Source: Escherichia coli (GTDB taxonomy: Bacteria > Pseudomonadota > Gammaproteobacteria > Enterobacterales > Enterobacteriaceae). From it: DNA of 64,000 nucleotides. Of the stretch, positions 37,727-50,111 are shown one piece after another. The DNA lies in the NCBI RefSeq assembly GCF_044324875.1, contig NZ_CP172185.1; one strand, 5' to 3'. The stretch's first letter is position 1, and the number at the start of each line of letters is the position of its first letter. The notes beneath the pieces were generated by a model that worked only from the letters and a program-made list of their open reading frames with translations, was not told the origin of the DNA and ran no database searches. The translations under genes were made by a program, and so were the position numbers.

Positions 37727-38082
37727 AAGATATGTTCCGTTATACGCAGCCCACAACGCGTCCTGCCCGTGGATGCGCTGACGTGTTATGGCTTGCGTAT
37801 GGGGTTGATGGAATAAGTGAAAAACCGCGGCAGAACGGGAAGATCAGGTAACCGACAAGGGACAGAACACCGGATGCAGGTTCAGAATGAATGATCTCCG
37901 TTGACTTCGGTTCACATCATTAAGCAGGACAGTAAGGTTTTACCGACGGAGTGTTTCCAGGAGCGAAAGCAGAGAAAAATACCGTTGCATGACTTCAGGA
38001 CGACTTTTTCAGAAAACGAGCTAAGGGCGTCAGCCAACGTCCTGTAGCATAAGCTCAGGCACCGGATGTCGTTTTACAGGGC

Positions 38083-38814
38083 TCACCTGCCATCCAGCAG
38101 ACGCCCCGGCCCACGACTGCAACCATAATTACGTTGCCCGGAACCGTCATGCTGCTTCGTCTCATATTTCACGAGATAACTGGCTCTGTTCCGGGCTTTC
38201 TGCAGCGCTTCCACATCACCACGCTTGATCCAGAGAACAGCGGCTTCACCCGGCTTTTTTTCTGAAGCCTTCCTGGTATCAGAACATCCACCCGACAAAG
38301 GCGTGTCATCGGAAGAAGGGCGAGCATCAGACGATGCTGGTTTACGGGAAGGCGTCCACCTGGAAAAATGGACCAGGCCATCGCCTTGCCAGGCCTCAAG
38401 ATGCAGGGCGCTGCACCATGCCTCCAGGATCATCGTCGCCAGCGAAGATGGTTCGCTGAAATCCCCTGGCGAGCACCAGGTATCTTTGTTGAGCAGCAAT
38501 ATCACGTGATAATGTTTCCTGCCTTTTTCCTTGCCAAACTCCCGACACCAGAAATAACGCAGAGTGGTTGCACGCACACGCTTGTTGGCACGTCGTTTTT
38601 TCCGCTGGTAAGCCTGGATTTTGGCTTTCAGGGATTCGAAAAAACGAGAAATCACCGCTGAATCCGGATCGGGATCCATGATGGTGACAGGCATATACTC
38701 AGGGAAACGTAAATCCACCCGGATTAACGAGACGGCACGGTGCTGCGACAGGGCACTGTCGAGAAGGCTGTCAAAACGGGATAACCAGTAAGCATTGTGT
38801 ATTGGTTGATTCAT
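38083..38814 (-). CDS. Gp2/YagK/YfjJ-family island protein
   Basis: 243 aa, MNQPIHNAYWLSRFDSLLDS... with a GRKHYHVILLLNKD motif. Confidence 0.55.
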   Translation of the reverse strand: MNQPIHNAYWLSRFDSLLDSALSQHRAVSLIRVDLRFPEYMPVTIMDPDPDSAVISRFFESLKAKIQAYQRKKRRANKRVRATTLRYFWCREFGKEKGRKHYHVILLLNKDTWCSPGDFSEPSSLATMILEAWCSALHLEAWQGDGLVHFSRWTPSRKPASSDARPSSDDTPLSGGCSDTRKASEKKPGEAAVLWIKRGDVEALQKARNRASYLVKYETKQHDGSGQRNYGCSRGPGRLLDGR

Positions 38815-40397
38815 GATGAGAGATCTCCGTTGATTTGGATTGACTTCACATCATTAATCACCGCGGTAAAACTTTACGGCATCATGTCATTAAGCAATGC
38901 TACAACTCTCTGATTAAGAGTGATTGAAACGGAACAAACCATCCCGGAACGAAAAGATAATCCTGCACACAGCAGCAAAACACGCAACAACAGCATGAAT
39001 GGATTTAAAAACGACATGGACGACGAGAAAAGCCTGAAGGGAAAAGGATCCACAGAACATTCGAACAAAACACCAGAAACGCAACCAGAACGCTTCCTGG
39101 CAATGCAAATCAACAACAACGCCAAAACCTACAGCTTAATCACACAACTCAATCACGAATGCGAATGACACGTTTAAAACCTGTTTACAGATAACGCCGT
39201 AACACGATCATCCCCATCACCATCAGAATCGATTTTCTCATCCCGAAAATGTTACGTTTCACTACGCACCATAAAAACGATTAACCATCGATAACGTAAA
39301 TCTCATCTGAATCAAAAAACCAAAACCAATCATCACACTTTCGCAATGCAAGAAGAAAAACCACATCATGACGAAAACAATGACCTTACATGAAAAAGCA
39401 AAACGTCAGGAATCGTTAATGCCTCAATCTGATTGTTATCAAAACATCCAGAAAGTCGTTTAACAGAATCGTCGTAAGCACATCGAAAAGAACGTCAGAT
39501 CACCTCAGGAAAGTTCGGGTTGATTTAGCGTAAAGATACTTTTCTCAGCTTAACGTCGAAACACAAACCAAAAACCACAAACAACCAAAGCTCAGGAAAG
39601 GTTAAACGTCACATCAGTAAAATCGAATAGCAGATTGATTGCTTAAACAGGAAAGATTGTTTTACAGCAGCATTAAACTGATTTAGTTAACGTAAAATCA
39701 GAACTGACAGGTTTACTAACTTGGATGTGTATCAGTTCAAAAATGTGTACAGCAATGCGTAATGAAACACATTTAAAGGAGATTAATGGGAAAAGTGTGT
39801 AAATGCGTAAACATGCACTAATGAATCACTGAAGGAATACATACAAAACGACTTAATGAAAACATAAAAGGACCTAATGGAAAAGGTGTATATAATACCA
39901 TATCCGACATTCTCAACATCTTAAGACATCCATGCAGACTGAATGTTGGTTTCAGTTTTTCACGGTAAGCATGAATCTTTTCTGTTCAAAAGCAGAGCAG
40001 ATTTACTCTGGAATTATTTTTCTTACTCCGTATTCTGTACAGCAAAAACTTGTGCTAACTTTACAGCAAACCATCATAATCAGCGTCTGTAGTCCCATCG
40101 CTTTACCCCATGAAAGTGAATCCATATGATGTGAGAGAGATAAGTCATCGTATCCGGTAAACACTGCTTACTATAACATAAGATCATTCAGTCAGTTTTA
40201 TCTCTGAACTGACGATTATGGCATGCTCATTTATATGGCTCACAGAGGAGTGTTATTATCCGTAAGCTTTAATCATCAAATCACATGACCATACCAAACT
40301 GGCGCTATATCAGCTCATTTGACGCTCATTCCCTTTAGATTTCTTTATGTGTTTTTTGTCGATAATTAAAATGTAATATAAATTTAATATTTTCACA

Positions 40398-41621
40398 TCA
40401 TAAACACCATTTAAAACCATCATCCTGAACATCATACAACAATATATTTTTACTAAAGCATGAATTGTATATTTCTATTAATTCAGGAAAATTATCAGGA
40501 TTCACCTTTAAATTCAACTGAATGTTACACTTAATTTCACTCAGCAGTTCTTCATGCGTGGATTTTATTATCCCTTTATCATAATCTATAAATACACACA
40601 TGTTTTTCATGAATTCAAACCCTTTTCCTGTATACAGTTTGATGAATGCCACAAGAGCAAACATTTCAAGATGCAGCCATAATGCCACGTGAGTTTTTCG
40701 CAAAGTATAAAAAATTGAATTCGCCACTTTTTTACTTATTGCTCTTTTGTACTGTGAGTGCGCCAGATTCAGTAGTGGCAATTCTCTCTCGATAAATGAA
40801 AGTGAAAAAGGCGGGTAAATTGATGTCGGAAATATTTCAGGTCTTATGATATTTTCGATTTCCACCATAAATCTATCCATAGAACGAAAATCATTTTCTT
40901 TTTTTATTCTGGTATAGAGACCGCCTTTATTCCTTACTGCGACTTTTTTTCGTGCTATCCCCCCCAACATTTCCTCTAATTGTTTATTTATCTTCGTATC
41001 ATTAAATACAACCATTCTTCTTATCATCCTGGGAAGGATGATAATATCAGAGCTTGAATCACTTGAACGGCAATTATTATTGATCCATGCAACTTCAAGT
41101 TGAAGTATCGGAACATTAAATTCTCTGGGGTTAATAACTCTCTGATATTGTTTTTTGTATGCGTTTTCATTAAGATATTCTCTGCTGTAGAGAAACTTAT
41201 AGCAATATAATCTGACAATATCCTTTATGTAAGATTTAAATGAGTCACCTGTAACAGATATATTTTTTCTTCTCAGTAACTCCTGTGTATTGAGCCATTC
41301 CCGTGACCGGAGTACTCCATTATGAAGACTTTTTCTTACTTGCTTTGAATTGCGCAATTGATGTAATATTTTTGCGTCCTCAACAATTCTCTTTCCCGTT
41401 TGATTTCTTGCAGCATCTATTACTCTGTCAAATATCTCCCGGTCCAGACTTTTGTCATATTTACTGATTATACGACAAATATTCCTGACCCGACGGTTCT
41501 CTTTATTTCGTTTCCATAACTGATAATGATCATCACATAACCTCAGGGCATTTGCCTCATCAAATTCTGAAACAGGATTGCTGCATTTTTTATTCCGACA
41601 GATACCTTTGTTTTTAGCCAT
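40398..41621 (-). CDS. Uncharacterised AT-rich orphan protein (407 aa) with an N-terminal Cys/His cluster
   Basis: Clean ATG at 41621 with a purine-rich ribosome-binding site; single long ORF; AT content visibly much higher than neighbours; CRNKKCSNPV...LCDDHYQLW near the N-terminus; no Walker A, DDE or HNH motif seen. Confidence 0.6.
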   Translation of the reverse strand: MAKNKGICRNKKCSNPVSEFDEANALRLCDDHYQLWKRNKENRRVRNICRIISKYDKSLDREIFDRVIDAARNQTGKRIVEDAKILHQLRNSKQVRKSLHNGVLRSREWLNTQELLRRKNISVTGDSFKSYIKDIVRLYCYKFLYSREYLNENAYKKQYQRVINPREFNVPILQLEVAWINNNCRSSDSSSDIIILPRMIRRMVVFNDTKINKQLEEMLGGIARKKVAVRNKGGLYTRIKKENDFRSMDRFMVEIENIIRPEIFPTSIYPPFSLSFIERELPLLNLAHSQYKRAISKKVANSIFYTLRKTHVALWLHLEMFALVAFIKLYTGKGFEFMKNMCVFIDYDKGIIKSTHEELLSEIKCNIQLNLKVNPDNFPELIEIYNSCFSKNILLYDVQDDGFKWCL

Positions 41622-41721
41622 ACTCTTCTTCCCGTCAATGGAAAAATTTTCACGTCCATATTACCTGACTGAGAGGCCGGATTAATGTGATCCGGTTCAG
41701 TGAAATCAACAGGATAACGGT

Positions 41722-42606
41722 ATGTCATTCAGCCATTCTTCCCTCTCCGCACACGTAAAGTCACATCTGACCTTTCTTCCTGAAGAAATTCGCCAGAAAA
41801 TCCTTGAACATCTTCGCAGCGTCATTCAGTACGAACCCGTTATTGGCATTATGGGTAAATCCGGTGCCGGAAAAAGCAGCCTGTGCAATGCCATTTTTCA
41901 GTCCCGTGTCTGCGCCACGCATCCGCTGAACGGCTGCACCCGTCAGGCTCATCGTCTTACCTTTCAGCCCGGTGAACGAAGAATGACGCTGGTCGATCTG
42001 CCCGGCACTGGCGAAACACCACAGCATGATCAGGAATACCGGGCACTTTACAGTCAGTTACTGCCCGAACTGGATCTGATTATCTGGATCCTGCGGGCTG
42101 ATGAACGTGCGTATGCTGCCGACATCGCCATGCATCAGTTTTTACTGAATGAAGGTGCCGATCCCTCGCGTTTTCTGTTTGTTCTCAGCCATGCCGATCG
42201 CATCCACCCGGCTGAAGAATGGAACAACCAGAGCAGCACGCCATCCCGTCAGCAGGAACTCTCACTGGCGACGGTGACAGCCCGGGTGGCAACCCTGTTC
42301 CCTTCATCATTTCCGGTACTCCCCATAGCCGCTCCTGCCGGCTGGAATCTTCCGGCATTTGTGTCTCTGATGATCCACGCCCTGCCACCACAGGCAACCA
42401 GCGCGGTTTATTCGCATATCCGGAATGAAAAGCGCACTGCGCAGGATCAGCAACACGCACAGCAGGCTTTTGGTGACGCCATCGGCCAGAGTTTTGACGC
42501 TGCCATTGCCCGGTTCAGCTTTCCGGCCTGGATGCTGCAGCTTCTGCGCAAAGCCCGTGATCGCATTATCCGCCTGCTGATCACACTGTGGGATCGCCTG
42601 TTCTGA
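41722..42606 (+). CDS. YeeP/YkfA/YfjP-family GTPase (island-associated)
   Basis: 294 aa; P-loop GIMGKSGAGKSS and DLPGTGE G3 motif. Confidence 0.85.
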   Translation: MSFSHSSLSAHVKSHLTFLPEEIRQKILEHLRSVIQYEPVIGIMGKSGAGKSSLCNAIFQSRVCATHPLNGCTRQAHRLTFQPGERRMTLVDLPGTGETPQHDQEYRALYSQLLPELDLIIWILRADERAYAADIAMHQFLLNEGADPSRFLFVLSHADRIHPAEEWNNQSSTPSRQQELSLATVTARVATLFPSSFPVLPIAAPAGWNLPAFVSLMIHALPPQATSAVYSHIRNEKRTAQDQQHAQQAFGDAIGQSFDAAIARFSFPAWMLQLLRKARDRIIRLLITLWDRLF

Positions 42607-42791
42607 ATGTCCCCGCTTTTTGACCGGCCCCGGCGATAACCAGGAAACGCATTTCCGGTTGCGTCACCACAATGCTGAAGGGCTTCGGTAAACCCTCATT
42701 CATTTCATCCATCAGGCCGCGTCTTCTCCGTGAGACGCGGCTTTTTCATTGATTACGTCATTCAGTCTTAACCACTGATAAGGAGCAAAGT

Positions 42792-43610
42792 ATGCGATTA
42801 GCCAGTCGTTTTGGTTATGCGAACCAGATACGCCGTGACCGTCCGCTGACCCGTGAAGAGCTGATGCACCATGTGCCCGGGATTTTCGGGGAAGATAAAC
42901 ACACCTCCCGGAGCCGGAACTATACATACATCCCCACCATCACCGTGCTGGAAAGCCTGCAGCGGGAAGGCTTTCAGCCATTCTTCGCCTGCCAGACCCG
43001 CGTACGTGACCCGGGTCGCCGGGGGTATACCAAACACATGCTGCGTCTGCGCCGTGACGGGGAGATAAACGGACAACATGTCCCTGAAATTATTCTGCTC
43101 AACTCTCATGACGGTACCTCCAGCTACCAGATGCTGCCGGGTTACTTCAGGTTCGTCTGCCAGAACGGATGCGTCTGCGGTCAGTCTCGGGGGGAAGTGC
43201 GTGTTCCGCACCGGGGAAATGTGGTGGACAGAGTCATTGAAGGGGCTTACGAGGTGGTGGGCGTGTTTGACCGGATAGAGGAGAAGCGTGATGCCATGCA
43301 GTCGCTGGTCCTGCCGCCACCGGCACGCCAGGCGCTGGCACAGGCGGCACTGACTTACCGTTATGGTGACGAACATCAGCCCGTCACCACCGCCGACATT
43401 CTGACACCACGACGCCGGGAGGATTACGGTAAGGACCTGTGGAGTGCTTATCAGACCATCCAGGAGAATATGCTGAAAGGCGGGATTTCCGGTCGCAGTG
43501 CAAAAGGAAAACGTATCCATACCCGGGCCATTCACAGCATTGATACCGATATAAAACTCAACCGCGCATTGTGGGTGATGGCAGAAACGCTGCTGGAGAG
43601 CATGCGCTGA
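42792..43610 (+). CDS. DUF932-family protein (YfjQ/YafZ-like)
   Basis: 272 aa; AGGAGC Shine-Dalgarno; sits at the position this family holds in CP4-type elements. Confidence 0.75.
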   Translation: MRLASRFGYANQIRRDRPLTREELMHHVPGIFGEDKHTSRSRNYTYIPTITVLESLQREGFQPFFACQTRVRDPGRRGYTKHMLRLRRDGEINGQHVPEIILLNSHDGTSSYQMLPGYFRFVCQNGCVCGQSRGEVRVPHRGNVVDRVIEGAYEVVGVFDRIEEKRDAMQSLVLPPPARQALAQAALTYRYGDEHQPVTTADILTPRRREDYGKDLWSAYQTIQENMLKGGISGRSAKGKRIHTRAIHSIDTDIKLNRALWVMAETLLESMR

Positions 43611-43691
43611 TGCCGTTTCCCTGAGTGAGGGAATCATTCAGCTTTCGTTCCTGAAAAACACACATTTATTTGTTATTTAAGGCGTTATCTC

Positions 43692-44171
43692 ATGAAAACC
43701 GTTTCTCAGAATACCCCCACAATTTATTCAGCTACAACACCAGAGAATAATCCGCCTCAGTTGGTTGCCAGCCTCGTCCCTGATGAACAGCGCATCAGCT
43801 TCTGGCCGCAGCATTTTGGCCTCATTCCACAGTGGGTGACCCTGGAGCCCCGTGTCTTCGGCTGGATGGACCGTCTGTGCGAAGACTACTGCGGTGGTAT
43901 CTGGAATCTGTACACCCTGAACAACGGCGGGGCATTTATGGCCCCCGAACCGGATGATGATGATGACGAAACATGGGTACTGTTCAATGCCATGAACGGT
44001 AACCGCGCTGAAATGAGCCCGGAAGCCGCCGGCATTGCCGCCTGTCTGATGACGTACAGTCATCACGCCTGCCGTACGGAGTGTTATGCCATGACGGTTC
44101 ATTATTACCGTCTGCGGGATTACGCCCTGCAGCATCCGGAATGCAGCGCCATTATGCGCATCATTGACTGA
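43692..44171 (+). CDS. Antirestriction protein, ArdB/KlcA family (YfjX/YkfF-like)
   Basis: 159 aa, ...FWPQHFGLIPQWVTLEPRVFGWMDRLCEDYCGGIWNLYTLNNGGAFMAP... Confidence 0.75.
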   Translation: MKTVSQNTPTIYSATTPENNPPQLVASLVPDEQRISFWPQHFGLIPQWVTLEPRVFGWMDRLCEDYCGGIWNLYTLNNGGAFMAPEPDDDDDETWVLFNAMNGNRAEMSPEAAGIAACLMTYSHHACRTECYAMTVHYYRLRDYALQHPECSAIMRIID

Positions 44172-44186
44172 AAGGGGGCCGGAACA

Positions 44187-44663
44187 ATGCAACAGATTTC
44201 CTTTCTGCCCGGAGAAATGACAACCAGAGAGCGCAGCCTCATTCAGCGGGCCCTGAAAGCCCTGGACCGCCATCTTCATGAACCCGGCGTGGCCTTCACC
44301 TCCACGCATGCGGCACGGGAATGGCTGATTCTGAACATGGCGGGACTGGAGCGTGAAGAATTCCGGGTGCTGTATCTGAATAACCAGAATCAGCTGATTG
44401 CCGGTGAAACCCTCTTCACCGGCACCATCAACCGCACGGAAGTCCATCCCCGGGAAGTGATTAAACGCGCCCTGTACCACAATGCCGCTGCCGTGGTGCT
44501 GGCGCACAATCACCCGTCCGGTGAAGTCACACCCAGCAAGGCAGACCGCCTTATCACGGAACGTCTGGTACAGGCGCTGGCCCTGGTGGATATCCGGGTG
44601 CCGGACCATCTGATAGTCGGTGGCAGCCAGGTTTTCTCCTTTGCCGAACATGGTCTGCTTTAA
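44187..44663 (+). CDS. RadC-like JAB-domain protein (YeeS/YfjY/YkfG family)
   Basis: 158 aa; JAMM motif HNHPSGEVTPSKAD. Confidence 0.85.
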   Translation: MQQISFLPGEMTTRERSLIQRALKALDRHLHEPGVAFTSTHAAREWLILNMAGLEREEFRVLYLNNQNQLIAGETLFTGTINRTEVHPREVIKRALYHNAAAVVLAHNHPSGEVTPSKADRLITERLVQALALVDIRVPDHLIVGGSQVFSFAEHGLL

Positions 44664-44725
44664 CCCGTCACAACCACATCACACCTGTTTTCACTTTTAT
44701 CTTCTGTCTTCAGAGGTATCCCATT

Positions 44726-44947
44726 ATGAAAATCATCACCCGTGGTGAAGCCATGCGTATTCACCAACAGCATCCTGCATCCCGTCTTTTTCCGTTCTGT
44801 ACCGGCAAATACCGCTGGCACGGCAGCACTGAAACGTATACCGGTCGTGAAGTGCAGGATATTCCCGGTGTGCTGGCTGTGTTTGCAGAACGTCGTAAGG
44901 ACAGTTTTGGCCCGTATGTCCGGCTGATGAGCGTCACCCTGAACTGA
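44726..44947 (+). CDS. DUF987-family small protein (YeeT-like)
   Basis: 73-aa ORF in the position YeeT holds between the RadC-like gene and the cbeA/cbtA pair. Confidence 0.65.
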   Translation: MKIITRGEAMRIHQQHPASRLFPFCTGKYRWHGSTETYTGREVQDIPGVLAVFAERRKDSFGPYVRLMSVTLN

Positions 44948-44961
44948 GTCAGGGCATTCTG

Positions 44962-45594
44962 ATGAGCAGAATTATCACCATCACAGTGTATACGCTGGAT
45001 GAACTTTCCTGCCCGGCACGGGAAAAAGCCCGCGACGGGTACCGTCAGCATCATGCTGACAGCAACTGGTATGAAAACGTGTATGAGGACGTCAGGGAGG
45101 TCTGTGGCATTTTCGGAATTGACCTCTGCCAGCGTGTTATCCGTCTCAGCAACGGCAGGTTTATGGAAGAGCCGTGCATCTGGTTCAGCGGATTCTGCAG
45201 CCAGGGACGGAGCCTGTTTTGAAGGACGCTGGCACTGGCAGTCAGCAACAACCAGGAGAGTCCGGGAGTATGCCCCGCAGAACCGTGAGCTTCATCGTAT
45301 CGCGGATGCCCTGCAGGCGGTGCAGAAACGTAACTTCTGGCAACTGCAGGCTGAAATCCACCACCGGGGACGTTACTGCCATCCGTTATCACTGTTACCC
45401 GGAACAGTCCGACTGGTCAGGCTATGACAGCCGATGCGGAAGCCGCTGTCAGCGAAGCCCTGCGCGACCTGGCCTTCTGGCTGTACCGTCAACTGGAAAA
45501 CGAGTACGACCAGATGACCTCAGACGCCGCTGTGGATGAGGCCATTCTCATCAATGCATACATCTTCACCGAAACCGGTCAGCGCACCGGCTGA
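44962..45594 (+). pseudogene. Unknown-function island gene split by two frameshifts
   Basis: 44962-45222 and 45424-45594 share a frame; the middle part (to 45427) is in the +1 frame. Confidence 0.4.
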
Positions 45595-45643
45595 CCTGTC
45601 ATCGTTAAACCATTCTTAACCACTTTTCAGAGAGGATTTTATC

Positions 45644-46012
45644 GTGTCAGACACACTCTCCGGGATAACTCATCCCGACGACAATCACGACCGCCCCTGG
45701 TGGGGGCTTCCCTGCACAGTGAGGCCCTGTTTTGGCGCCCGTCTGGTGCAGGAGGGTAACCGCCTGCATTACCTTGCCGACCGCGCCGGCATCAGAGGCC
45801 GGTTCAGCGATGCGGATGCATACCATCTGGACCAGGCCTTTCCGCTGCTGATGAAACAACTGGAACTCATGCTCACCAGCGGTGAACTGAATCCCCGCCA
45901 TCAGCATACCGTGACACTGTATGCGAAGGGGCTGACCTGCGAAGCCGACACCCTCGGCAGTTGTGGTTACGTTTATCTGGCTGTTTATCCGACGCCCGAA
46001 ACGAAAAAGTAA
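45644..46012 (+). CDS. cbeA: CbeA/YeeU-family antitoxin (type IV toxin-antitoxin)
   Basis: 122 aa, MSDTLSGITHPDDNHDRPWWGLPCTVRPCFGARLVQEGNRLHYLADRAGIRG... Confidence 0.85.
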   Translation: MSDTLSGITHPDDNHDRPWWGLPCTVRPCFGARLVQEGNRLHYLADRAGIRGRFSDADAYHLDQAFPLLMKQLELMLTSGELNPRHQHTVTLYAKGLTCEADTLGSCGYVYLAVYPTPETKK

Positions 46013-46102
46013 ACCACCGGAATAACCTTCTGCTCCGGCCAGGTGTTTTCACCACGCCACTCTCCCCATAATTTAATCTCTCATATCAGGAAAATCTTCA
46101 GT

Positions 46103-46513
46103 ATGAAATTATTACCCGACACACATGTACGGGAGGCATCGTGCTGCCCGTCTCCCGTCACCATCTGGCAGACACTGCTCATCCGTCTGCTGGACCAGCA
46201 CTATGGCCTCACACTGAATGACACACCGTTCGCTGATGAACGTGTGATTGAGCAGCATATTGAGGCCGGCATTTCACTGTGCGATGCGGTGAACTTTCTC
46301 GTTGAAAAATACGCACTGGTACGTACCGACCAGCCGGGATTCAGCGCAGGAGCCCCGTCGCAGTTAATCAACAGCATCGATATTCTCCGGGCCCGCCGGG
46401 CAACAGGCCTGATGACACGTAATAACTACAGAATGGTAAATAACATTACCCTGGGTAGCATCCGGGGGCGAAACGATGAAACTTTCCCTGACGCTGGAAG
46501 CCGACAGCATTAA
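46103..46513 (+). CDS. cbtA: CbtA/YeeV-family toxin
   Basis: From ATG 46103: [56 protein letters not shown]...; track ORF starts upstream at 46043. Confidence 0.85.
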
Positions 46514-46898
46514 CGTGCAGGCACTGAACATGGGGCGCATTGTCGTTGACATTGATGGTGTAAATCTCGCTGAACTGATTAACAAGGTCGCTGAATACGG
46601 TTATTCACTCCGCGTGGTGGATGAACGTGACGCTACCGAAACACCGGCGACTTCTGCCAGCTCTCATCAGTTGCCGGAAGACAATACAGTGATACAGAGC
46701 GTGATGCCATTAACCACTGAAACAGCGCTGGATATCCTCATTGCGTGGCTGCAGGACAATATCGACTGCGGGTCCGGAATTATTTTCGACAACGATGAGG
46801 ATAAAACGGATTCGGCAGCACTGCTGCCCTGTATTGAACAGGCCAGGGAGGATATCCGTACCCTGCACCAACTGCAACTTCTGCACCAGAACCGGTGA
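46476..46898 (+). CDS. YeeW-like protein
   Basis: 140-aa ORF overlapping the cbtA 3' end, in the position of yeeW homologues. Confidence 0.55.
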
Positions 46899-46982
46899 AT
46901 CTCACTCACCAGACTTCATTCTCCTGACGCCAGCCTGAACAGAGCTGGCGTTTTCGTTTATAAACAGAAAGGAAACCCCATA

Positions 46983-47768
46983 ATGTCATATATCACAATC
47001 CCCCACCCGAACGCGGTCAACGGACATACAGCCGTTATCTGTTCCACAAGTATCAGACACATCCTGGCTGTACGAAAGAGTACACTGCTGCAAATCGACA
47101 CGCTTATCCGGCAACTGACAGAAATCTCAGCACTGACGGAAAGTATTGGCGGTAAAGCCGCCCCGGACTGGGCCATGAAACAGGATTTTCGCTGTGGCTG
47201 CTGGCTGAAGGAGAAACAGGAAACCGCAATGAAAGCCATTACCCGGAATCTTGACCGCGAAATCTGGCGTAACCTGATGCAGCGTTCCGGGATGCTTTCC
47301 TTAATGGATGCACAGGCACGTGATACATGGTACAGGTCACTGGAATATGATAATTTTCCGGAAATCAGTGAAGCGAACATTCTGAGCACATTTGAACAAC
47401 TGCACCAGAATAAGGATGAAGTGTTTGAGCGGGGGGTGATCAACCTCTTCAAAGGGCTGAGCTGGGATTACAAAACCAACTCACCCTGTAAATTTGGCAG
47501 TAAAATTATCGTCAACAATCTGGTGAGGTGGGACCAGTGGGGATTTCATCTTATCAGTGGAATGCAGGCAGATCGCCTGGCTGACCTGGAAAGAATGTTG
47601 CATCTGCTCAGCGGTAAACCGATCCCCGACAACCGGGGAATATCACCATTAATCTGGATGACCACATACAGTCCGTTCAGGGTAAAGGACGCTATGAAGA
47701 TGAGATGTTCATCATTAAATACTTTAAGAAGGGAGCTGCACACATCACTTTCAAAAGGCTGGAGCTGA
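46983..47768 (+). CDS. DUF4942-family protein
   Basis: 261 aa, MSYITIPHPNAVNGHTAVICSTSIRHILAVRKSTLL...; last gene before the island boundary. Confidence 0.65.
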   Translation: MSYITIPHPNAVNGHTAVICSTSIRHILAVRKSTLLQIDTLIRQLTEISALTESIGGKAAPDWAMKQDFRCGCWLKEKQETAMKAITRNLDREIWRNLMQRSGMLSLMDAQARDTWYRSLEYDNFPEISEANILSTFEQLHQNKDEVFERGVINLFKGLSWDYKTNSPCKFGSKIIVNNLVRWDQWGFHLISGMQADRLADLERMLHLLSGKPIPDNRGISPLIWMTTYSPFRVKDAMKMRCSSLNTLRRELHTSLSKGWS

Positions 47769-47935
47769 TTGACAGAATTAACGATATAATAGCCAGGCAC
47801 TTTCCTTCTGTGCTCTCAGCCTGACCCCGAGTTTGATTCCCTTTCGATATCAAAAGGGACTGCGGGTACAAAAGAGGGTACATCTTTCACCAAACCAAAC
47901 AAAATAAACCAATATCAACACGATAGAAGCATTCT

Positions 47936-47956
47936 TCGATTCCGAGTCCGGCACCA
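47936..47956 (+). repeat. 21-bp copy of a tRNA-Phe 3' end: island att direct repeat (distal boundary)
   Basis: TCGATTCCGAGTCCGGCACCA matches the pheU/pheV acceptor/T-arm end TTCGATTCCGAGTCCGGGCACCA with one G missing; no upstream tRNA body. Confidence 0.6.
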
Positions 47957-47965
47957 AATTCATAT

Positions 47966-47996
47966 AAACGGACCTCCACGGAGGTCCGTTTTTCGT
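47966..47996 (+). terminator. Rho-independent terminator hairpin after the tRNA-Phe fragment
   Basis: aaacggacctcc-acg-gaggtccgttttt. Confidence 0.55.
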
Positions 47997-48572
47997 TTCA
48001 GGACGCCACAATTTAAGCGTTCTGCCTAAAAATCATTTCTACCGAACTCAACCAGATTCTCCCCACATCACCAGCAATTTGCGGGCATATCCCAATTCGG
48101 GGAAATGTGTTCCTGAGCTATAGCACTGACTGACGTGAAATGTCGTGCGGCCCCGTGATGCTGTTGAACGTCAAATGACGTCATCAGGAGCGTAACGCAT
48201 CCATAAAGCACAACATCGGGCAGAACGCCGACTGATGAGATTTTCTGAATGAGAACAAAGAGAAATGTATCAGTCCGCTTGCTCATGCAAAGACTAACAA
48301 TCCATAAAAATAGTAAGCGCTCCGGGCAATTTTCCATGGATTATTTTCTGAACATTTTTCTTTGGCAAAGATGATGAATTTTGATGGTAAGGAATATTAC
48401 TTCTGGTTCTCAGTAAAATCCTTTCGTAATACTATGTGATCAAGAAGTTTATGGCTGGTAAAAATAACGTCTTGCATTCACCAATAATATGTAAATAAAC
48501 CCATCTATAGATGGTAAAAATAGGTTGTGGCAATTATCATTGCATCATTCCCTTTTCGAATGAGTTTCTATT

Positions 48573-50111
48573 ATGCAACAACCTGTAGTTCGCGTTGGCG
48601 AATGGCTTGTTACTCCGTCCATAAACCAAATTAGCCGCAATGGGCGTCAACTTACCCTTGAGCCGAGATTAATCGATCTTCTGGTTTTCTTTGCTCAACA
48701 CAGTGGCGAAGTACTTAGCAGGGATGAACTTATCGATAATGTCTGGAAGAGAAGTATTGTCACCAATCACGTTGTGACGCAGAGTATCTCAGAACTACGT
48801 AAGTCATTAAAAGATAATGATGAAGATAGTCCTGTCTATATCGCTACTGTACCAAAGCGCGGCTATAAATTAATGGTGCCGGTTATCTGGTACAGCGAAG
48901 AAGAGGGAGAGGAAATAATGCTATCTTCGCCTCCCCCTATACCAGAGGCGGTTCCTGACACAGATTCTCCCTCCCACAGTCTTAACATTCAAAACACCGC
49001 AACACCACCTGAACAATCCCCTGTTAAAAGCAAACGATTCACTACCTTTTGGGTATGGTTTTTTTTCCTGTTGTCGTTAGGTATCTGTGTAGCACTGGTA
49101 GCGTTTTCAAGTCTTGATACACGTCTTCCGATGAGCAAATCGCGTATTTTGCTCAATCCACGCGATATTGACATTAATATGGTAAATAAAAGTTGTAACA
49201 GCTGGAGTTCCCCGTATCAGCTCTCTTACGCGATAGGCGTGGGTGATTTGGTGGCGACATCACTTAACACCTTCTCCACCTTTATGGTGCATGACAAAAT
49301 CAACTACAACATTGATGAACCGAGCAGTTCCGGTAAAACATTATCTATTGCGTTTGTTAATCAGCGCCAATACCGTGCTCAACAATGCTTTATGTCGGTA
49401 AAATTGGTAGACAATGCAGATGGTTCAACCATGCTGGATAAACGTTATGTCATCACTAACGGTAATCAGCTGGCGATTCAAAATGATTTACTCCAGAGTT
49501 TATCAAAAGCGTTAAACCAACCGTGGCCACAACGAATGCAGGAGATGCTCCAGCAAATTTTGCCTCATCGTGGTGCGTTATTAACTAATTTTTATCAGGC
49601 TCATGATTATTTACTGCATGGCGATGATAAATCATTGAACCGTGCCAGTGAATTACTAGGTGAGATTGTTCAATCATCCCCCGAATTTACCTACGCGAGA
49701 GCAGAAAAAGCATTAGTTGATATCGTGCGCCATTCTCAACATCCTTTGGATGAAAAACAATTAGCAGCACTGAACACAGAAATAAATAACATTGTTACAC
49801 TACCGGAATTGAATAACCTGTCCATTATATATCAAATAAAAGCGGTCAGTGCTCTGGTAAAAGGTAAAACAGATGAGTCTTACCAGGCGATAAATACTGG
49901 CATTGATCTTGAAATGTCCTGGCTAAATTATGTGTTGCTTGGCAAGGTTTATGAAATGAAGGGGATGAACCGGGAAGCAGCTGATGCATATCTCACCGCC
50001 TTTAATTTACGCCCAGGGGCAAACACCCTTTACTGGATTGAAAATGGTATATTCCAGACTTCTGTTCCTTATGTTGTACCTTATCTCGACAAATTTCTCG
50101 CTTCAGAATAA
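48573..50111 (+). CDS. cadC: Membrane-integrated transcriptional activator CadC
   Basis: 512 aa, MQQPVVRVGEWLVTPSINQISRNGRQLTLEPRLIDLLVFF...; winged-helix N-terminus, single transmembrane segment. Confidence 0.95.
   Translation: MQQPVVRVGEWLVTPSINQISRNGRQLTLEPRLIDLLVFFAQHSGEVLSRDELIDNVWKRSIVTNHVVTQSISELRKSLKDNDEDSPVYIATVPKRGYKLMVPVIWYSEEEGEEIMLSSPPPIPEAVPDTDSPSHSLNIQNTATPPEQSPVKSKRFTTFWVWFFFLLSLGICVALVAFSSLDTRLPMSKSRILLNPRDIDINMVNKSCNSWSSPYQLSYAIGVGDLVATSLNTFSTFMVHDKINYNIDEPSSSGKTLSIAFVNQRQYRAQQCFMSVKLVDNADGSTMLDKRYVITNGNQLAIQNDLLQSLSKALNQPWPQRMQEMLQQILPHRGALLTNFYQAHDYLLHGDDKSLNRASELLGEIVQSSPEFTYARAEKALVDIVRHSQHPLDEKQLAALNTEINNIVTLPELNNLSIIYQIKAVSALVKGKTDESYQAINTGIDLEMSWLNYVLLGKVYEMKGMNREAADAYLTAFNLRPGANTLYWIENGIFQTSVPYVVPYLDKFLASE

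Follow-up and report, generated by a model that had tools for sequence, protein, structure and literature searches.

A frameshifted cbtA toxin gene in a CbeA/CbtA-family locus at the attR-proximal end of an Escherichia coli pheU island

The gene pair at positions 45644-46513 of the window, as we call the whole 64-kb stretch of Escherichia coli DNA (contig NZ_CP172185.1) that was analysed, is a CbeA/CbtA-family type IV locus at the attR-proximal end of an island inserted at pheU, which we are inclined, by a modest preference, to regard as a decaying remnant and not as a working addiction module. The toxin gene has lost a single base close to its 3' end, the antitoxin gene is intact, and three further lesions are found within 2.8 kb. 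Nothing about the locus departs from known kinds: it is a catalogued copy, public databases already contain its exact proteins, and the lesion is picked up by standard annotation.

The CbeA/CbtA pair and the frameshift in the toxin gene

An earlier note, made from the sequence alone, had placed a CbeA/CbtA pair in this region, and both open reading frames were found exactly where it had put them, with full-length matches to their respective Pfam families. The antitoxin gene cbeA (yeeU family; 45644-46012, + strand) is intact, begins with a GTG codon and encodes 122 residues. Its product covers positions 1-100 of the 101 in the Pfam CbeA_antitoxin profile (PF06154; E 7.8e-55, 184 bits), shares 92% identity with K-12 CbeA and 63-66% with YafW and YfjZ, also of K-12, and aligns with these K-12 families over its full length, in keeping with the family assignment that had been proposed. 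The solved YeeU structures 2H28 and 2INW are likewise matched by its residues 1-121 (E about 1e-77). The gene lies directly 5' of cbtA on the same strand, which is the antitoxin-toxin order of a type IV system, and the two are separated by a spacer of 90 nt (46013-46102, + strand) as read from the sequence. Judging from the homology to K-12 CbeA, the pair would operate in the type IV mode, wherein the antitoxin acts on the targets of the toxin and not on the toxin itself; CbeA reportedly counteracts its toxin by bundling FtsZ and MreB filaments and not by binding the toxin, as Masuda et al. are said to have described in 2012.

A search with Rfam at the gathering threshold across 38000-49000, the spacer included, recovered no RNA family. 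A promoter scan found no sigma-70-like site 5' of cbeA or in the spacer, with fewer sites than in shuffled sequence, and transcription of the pair probably enters from upstream.

The toxin gene cbtA (yeeV family; 46103-46513, + strand) starts with ATG and has a reading frame of 136 codons plus a stop; the length of about 137 residues given in the earlier note arose because the stop codon was included in the count. Its product covers the entire Pfam CbtA_toxin profile (PF06755; positions 1-112 of 112, E 1.6e-59, 199 bits against a cut-off of 25), and is about 84% identical to K-12 CbtA overall (85% across residues 1-119) and 58-63% identical to YkfI and YpjF. The alignments with K-12 YeeU/YeeV, YafW/YkfI and YfjZ/YpjF that had been suggested as a check thus bear out the assignment, the latter two pairs (of CP4-6 and CP4-57) being only about 58-68% identical to that of the window. 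The toxin was also expected to align over its full length; this held for residues 1-118, which are canonical, and failed for the last 18 residues (119-136), which are out of frame and do not align to anything in the CbtA family. The protein alignment with K-12 CbtA holds through G118 and is followed by complete divergence.

At the DNA level, a gap of 1 nt was found at 46457/46458 (+ strand) in each of the alignments with K-12, with an intact close allele (L007) and with an intact paralogue (L008). Here GGT AAG CAT has become GGT AGC ATC through the loss of one A in codon 119, and the loss of this base therefore gives 18 out-of-frame residues in place of the seven residues KHPGAKR. When the A is re-inserted at 46457/46458, the predicted protein ends in GKHPGAKR after 125 residues, with a TGA at 46477-46479, as compared with the 124 residues of K-12 CbtA, which ends in GKYPEAK. 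The stop codon of the repaired gene would overlap the ATG of the next gene in the form ATGA, and the same layout is seen in L007, in L014-L017 and in K-12. The window cbtA lacks this canonical-length frame of the CbtA subgroup (about 124-125 residues, ending at the ATGA overlap); its shifted frame enters the DUF5983 gene and stops there after 38 nt, at a TAA (46511-46513). The overlap with a yeeW-like (DUF5983_N) gene, which starts at 46476, had been correctly noticed beforehand, as had the departure of the C-terminus from that of K-12, which is real after G118; the odd C-terminus is, however, a -1 frameshift caused by a single-base deletion and not a natural variant.

With respect to individual residues, the N64-F65-L66 motif is invariant in CbtA-family alignments, and F65 is conserved in both K-12 CbtA and the window toxin. 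Residue 15 of the window toxin is a cysteine, which it has in common with YkfI and YpjF, whereas K-12 CbtA has an arginine in this position. A search of solved structures returned no match for CbtA, and an AlphaFold2 model of the 136-residue toxin was of moderate to low confidence (mean pLDDT 62, pTM 0.41). In this weak model the frameshift falls just past the last helix (residues 106-116), and the new tail is predicted to be unstructured.

Distribution of the allele in E. coli

Thirty-two complete E. coli chromosomes have the 1.6-kb region at 99.1-99.8% identity to that of the window, and among 5,426 complete E. coli genomes 42 contain the 80 nt around the deletion without any change. The exact 136-residue toxin is encoded on at least 996 contigs, and the exact CbeA protein of the window on at least 997; the former is entered in databases under names like 'MULTISPECIES: TA system toxin CbtA family protein'. 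In the three complete genomes that were opened (ACN002, AR_0085 and LH50-c) the locus lies beside cadC, and the PGAP annotation marks cbtA as a 'frameshifted' pseudogene. These three share with the window the cbtA deletion, the cadC-adjacent position and the truncation of the DUF5983 gene; in ACN002, two extra genes separate the GTPase and DUF932 genes. The same allele is found in about 40 other complete genomes, many of them from poultry and some from human and other sources.

The window cbeA differs from that of ACN002, AR_0085 and LH50-c at only four positions, which lie within 16 nt (45913-45928), all of the differences being synonymous. At these same four positions it agrees with L008, the paralogous allele from a selC island, and the stretch looks like a short gene-conversion tract between paralogous copies of cbeA. 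A further cadC-adjacent copy, L011 (Logan ERR1937075, 2543-5407), has the identical cbtA deletion as the segment 45644-46898 of the window. It is about 10% diverged from the window, mostly in the spacer and the beginning of cbtA, and has a ParD/ParE pair ahead of cadC. Comparison with this copy indicates that paralogous islands have recombined into mosaics since the deletion took place.

Lesions in the neighbouring genes

The earlier note had described the pair as part of a complete module. This description holds for the GTPase, DUF932, antirestriction, RadC and DUF987 genes, which are intact and have full-length Pfam matches, and fails between DUF987 and attR, where four genes carry lesions, namely the gene intervening between DUF987 and cbeA, cbtA itself, the DUF5983 gene and the DUF4942 gene.

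The intervening gene (44962-45594, + strand), named 'antitoxin of toxin-antitoxin stability system' by NCBI and DUF8835 in some records, is a pseudogene with two deletions: when compared with the intact 214-residue L008 paralogue it lacks 2 nt near 45204 and 10 nt near 45387, and PGAP marks it as 'frameshifted' in ACN002, AR_0085 and LH50-c. No Pfam or NCBIfam match was obtained for this gene, and indeed NCBIfam gave no match for any of the eight proteins tried. The gene is an optional component of such loci: L008 and L011 have it intact (214 residues), and neither K-12 CP4-44 nor L007 has it.

Immediately downstream of cbtA is a 140-residue fusion frame (46476-46898, + strand), in which an internal deletion has joined the N-terminal domain of DUF5983 (yeeW-like) in frame to DUF957. 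In this protein Pfam detects only DUF5983_N (residues 4-57), while residues 79-140 share 90% identity with the L007 DUF957 protein. The 85 nt at 46623-46707 of the window stand where L007 has 360 nt, which amounts to a net loss of about 275 nt, and PGAP describes the region as 'DUF5983, missing C-terminus', followed by DUF957. The truncation is also present in the otherwise intact selC-island copy, and it thus predates the other lesions. The exact fusion protein is encoded on more than 250 contigs.

A terminator-like hairpin, read from the sequence, follows at 46928-46959 (+ strand; CGCCAGC, a 9-nt loop and GCTGGCG, then TTTTCGTTT); it was missing from the hairpin scan because the loop limit of the scan was 8 nt. 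Beyond it lies a DUF4942 pseudogene (46983-47824, + strand; open reading frame 46983-47768) with a 1-nt deletion at about 47638, which PGAP annotates as frameshifted or truncated. Its Pfam match stops at position 130 of the 190 in the model, whereas that of the intact L008 paralogue reaches position 189.

Is the pair a working module or a remnant?

Studies on the K-12 proteins have shown that CbtA contacts FtsZ at its H6/H7 loop, through a surface to which F65 belongs, and MreB at its flat face, and that the resulting blocks to division and to elongation are independent of each other (PMC5624674). If the locus is the decaying remnant for which we have stated a slight preference, cbeA would persist as an effectively orphan antitoxin; such an orphan CbeA could still give cross-protection from toxins encoded at paralogous loci of the genome. 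E. coli genomes have a median of three and a maximum of 14 CbeA/CbtA-type loci, and either one of the K-12 antitoxins YafW and YfjZ neutralises both YkfI and YpjF (PMC5371832). As regards the window toxin itself, the balance tips narrowly towards its being inactive or attenuated.

The alternative that the pair still works, i.e. that the 136-residue CbtA retains its toxicity towards FtsZ and MreB, the swapped tail being dispensable and disordered, and that CbeA is retained to neutralise it, is a serious contender to which we would give somewhat less than an even chance. It draws on the preservation of the whole Pfam toxin domain (residues 1-112) and of F65, a residue needed for FtsZ binding in CbtA, YkfI and YpjF (PMC5624674). 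YkfI and YpjF, whose natural ends (113 and 109 residues) come near the start of the window frameshift, are toxic despite having no corresponding tail (PMC5371832, PMC5624674), and His6-CbtA-GFP, with its bulky C-terminal fusion, is toxic, with cells shaped like those that express the untagged protein (PMC5624674). The lack of predicted structure in the new tail, albeit in a weak AlphaFold model, points in the same direction, as do the intact cbeA, which departs from the ACN002 allele by four synonymous changes only, and the commonness of the allele, with the exact toxin and antitoxin each found on about 1000 contigs.

This has to be set against the decay of the adjacent genes and against the other loci with the same tail (see below), in which the antitoxin is broken and cbtA is otherwise free of lesions. 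The cysteine at position 15 may also speak against a working toxin, in that R15 is an MreB-binding determinant of K-12 CbtA and the R15C substitution abolishes MreB binding, yet YkfI and YpjF naturally have C15 and still block elongation (PMC5624674). Literature searches retrieved no primary data on C-terminal truncations of YeeV. Tan et al. reportedly found in 2011 that such truncations change the phenotype to cell elongation, which would likewise tell against a working pair.

Toxins with the same out-of-frame tail were detected at other loci, where they have arisen through different 1-nt deletions; in all, at least four distinct 1-nt deletions in codons 117-123 lead to this tail in divergent alleles. 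The L012 cbtA has lost the T of GGT and its cognate cbeA is frameshifted; in that of L009 the T of CTG (codon 117) is missing and the cognate cbeA has an in-frame stop; and that of L010 has lost a G in a G-run and its cbeA is frameshifted at the N-terminus. None of these three toxin genes has a lesion besides the tail shift. By comparison, cbeA is intact in all eight of the normal-tailed toxin contexts that were examined. This association between a shifted tail and a broken antitoxin rests on four independent events against eight contexts, a small sample that is not phylogenetically controlled. One reading of these observations is that toxins of the CbtA subgroup depend for their function on the final 6-8 residues, or on a short free C-terminus, such that deletions in codons 117-123 would represent a recurrent, minimal way of disarming the toxin, with the reading frame kept long and the antitoxin kept for cross-protection. 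The recurrence of at least four independent deletions, and the antitoxin being also broken in two or three of the loci, offer limited support for this reading, which we nevertheless consider unlikely.

It is far less probable still that the long form represents a true alternative isoform or an attenuated allele favoured by selection, with recurrent -1 shifts being favoured as they give a weaker toxin or uncouple translation of the downstream gene. The convergence of at least four different 1-nt deletions in codons 117-123 on one common tail, and the wide spread of the window allele, might be taken to hint at selection. However, any -1 shift in this stretch must give the same tail because the same downstream DNA is read, and the search was biased towards tail-sharing proteins. 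Furthermore, among the best 120 toxin clusters 69 have the normal ending and only 6 have the shifted tail, alongside many other disrupted forms. Reading of the sequence revealed no slippery sequence at the deletion site; since such a site is absent and the form of normal length predominates, programmed frameshifting was rejected. Finally, that the frameshift is a sequencing or assembly artefact is effectively refuted and was rejected, for although sequencing errors often take the form of single-base indels, the same deletion is found in 42 of the 5,426 genomes, independently of one another, in three annotated genomes and on about 1000 contigs, and the lost base lay in an AA dinucleotide and not in a long homopolymer.

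The locus has a modest value: it illustrates the stepwise decay of a pheU island at its attR end, and it offers a natural allele with which to ask whether CbtA needs its extreme C-terminus for toxicity. Its importance is otherwise small, as one of several such loci in an E. coli genome, and the recurrence of terminal -1 frameshifts is the one mildly interesting lead.

The upstream module and its relatives

The five intact genes upstream of the pair are all on the + strand. A 294-residue GTPase family protein of the YkfA/YfjP-like type is encoded at 41722-42606 (Pfam MMR_HSR1, E 2e-14) and carries the name 'GTPase family protein' in near-identical genomes. It is 34% identical to K-12 YkfA over its full length, and is thereby far more diverged from K-12 than the rest of the module. 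It also provided the sole PADLOC match in the locus, a weak one to LeoBC (E 3.8e-7) restricted to the C-terminal part; PADLOC returned nothing for the toxin-antitoxin pair. The GTPase gene is followed by a YafZ/YfjQ-like DUF932 gene (42792-43610; 272 residues; Pfam DUF932 positions 1-227 of 227, E 5e-52), whose product is 75% identical to K-12 YafZ and YfjQ, and by a YafX/LfgA-like antirestriction gene (43692-44171; 159 residues; Pfam Antirestrict positions 1-92 of 92, E 2e-37), whose product is 69-70% identical to K-12 YafX and LfgA. Next come a RadC-like JAB domain gene of the YeeS/YkfG/LfgB-like type (44187-44663; 158 residues; Pfam RadC, E 5e-45) and a YeeT-like DUF987 gene (44726-44947; 73 residues; Pfam DUF987 positions 1-65 of 65, E 4e-39), the products of which are each 96% identical to their K-12 counterparts YeeS and YeeT.

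The CP4-type synteny proposed in the earlier note was confirmed, in that the order of the genes and their Pfam content match those of K-12 CP4-6, CP4-57 and CP4-44. The CP4-44 pair, CbeA/CbtA (YeeU/YeeV), has the same order RadC-DUF987-cbeA-cbtA-yeeW as the window and shares the GTG start of cbeA, and its spacer of 88 nt (PMC5371832) is comparable to the 90 nt of the window. It differs from the window, which has the additional frameshifted gene between DUF987 and cbeA, and whose element is inserted at pheU and not at the CP4-44 site. The pairs of CP4-6 (YafW/YkfI) and CP4-57 (YfjZ/YpjF) belong to the same two protein families as the window pair and share with it the upstream module GTPase-DUF932-antirestriction-RadC-DUF987. 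Like the window pair they adjoin the attachment site of their island, as do all three pairs of K-12 (PMC5371832); however, their spacers are only 20 nt long (PMC5371832). A similar arrangement is found in L008, from the selC/setC island of E. coli ECCNB12-2, which has the same order from the GTPase to the DUF4942 gene at about 91% DNA identity and, like the window, the DUF5983 truncation. In this island the gene between DUF987 and cbeA (214 residues), cbtA (124 residues) and the DUF4942 gene (278 residues) are intact, whereas the window has indels in each of them.

The island boundary at pheU and the remainder of the window

The right boundary of the island is marked by attR (47936-47957, + strand), which consists of the last 23 nt of the tRNA-Phe gene pheU minus one G. 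In the alignment with the K-12 pheU-cadC region, the window is collinear from exactly 47936-47957, and about 97% identical up to cadC. As K-12 collinearity resumes at this pheU remnant, the toxin-antitoxin locus lies 1.4 kb from attR. The remnant was recognized by reading the sequence together with the K-12 alignment; a search for the 3' end of pheU that allowed only mismatches gave no match, owing to an indel in the remnant. On the 3' side of attR, the conserved terminator hairpin of pheU is found at 47966-47991. The sole trace of an integrase near the right end is an ancient yjdQ-like remnant, also present in K-12; it is of the P4 type and occupies about 48155-48314, between attR and cadC as in K-12 (junction 47936-48572). 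ARAGORN detected no intact tRNA gene in the whole 64-kb window, and the left end of the island therefore lies outside it.

When the segment 28000-50000 was compared with complete genomes, no single match of 99% identity or more extended across its full length. Just 5' of the GTPase gene is a 407-residue reading frame (40398-41621, - strand) that is conserved in related islands; Pfam, NCBIfam and PADLOC gave no match for it, and its counterpart in LH50-c is annotated with an internal stop. The remainder of the island (1-41000 of the window) is a mosaic that includes IS elements, genes for TonB-dependent receptors, and an ascorbate-type PTS accompanied by transketolase genes and a LacI regulator, and a gene of the YagK/YfjJ (inovirus Gp2) family is located at 38083-38814.
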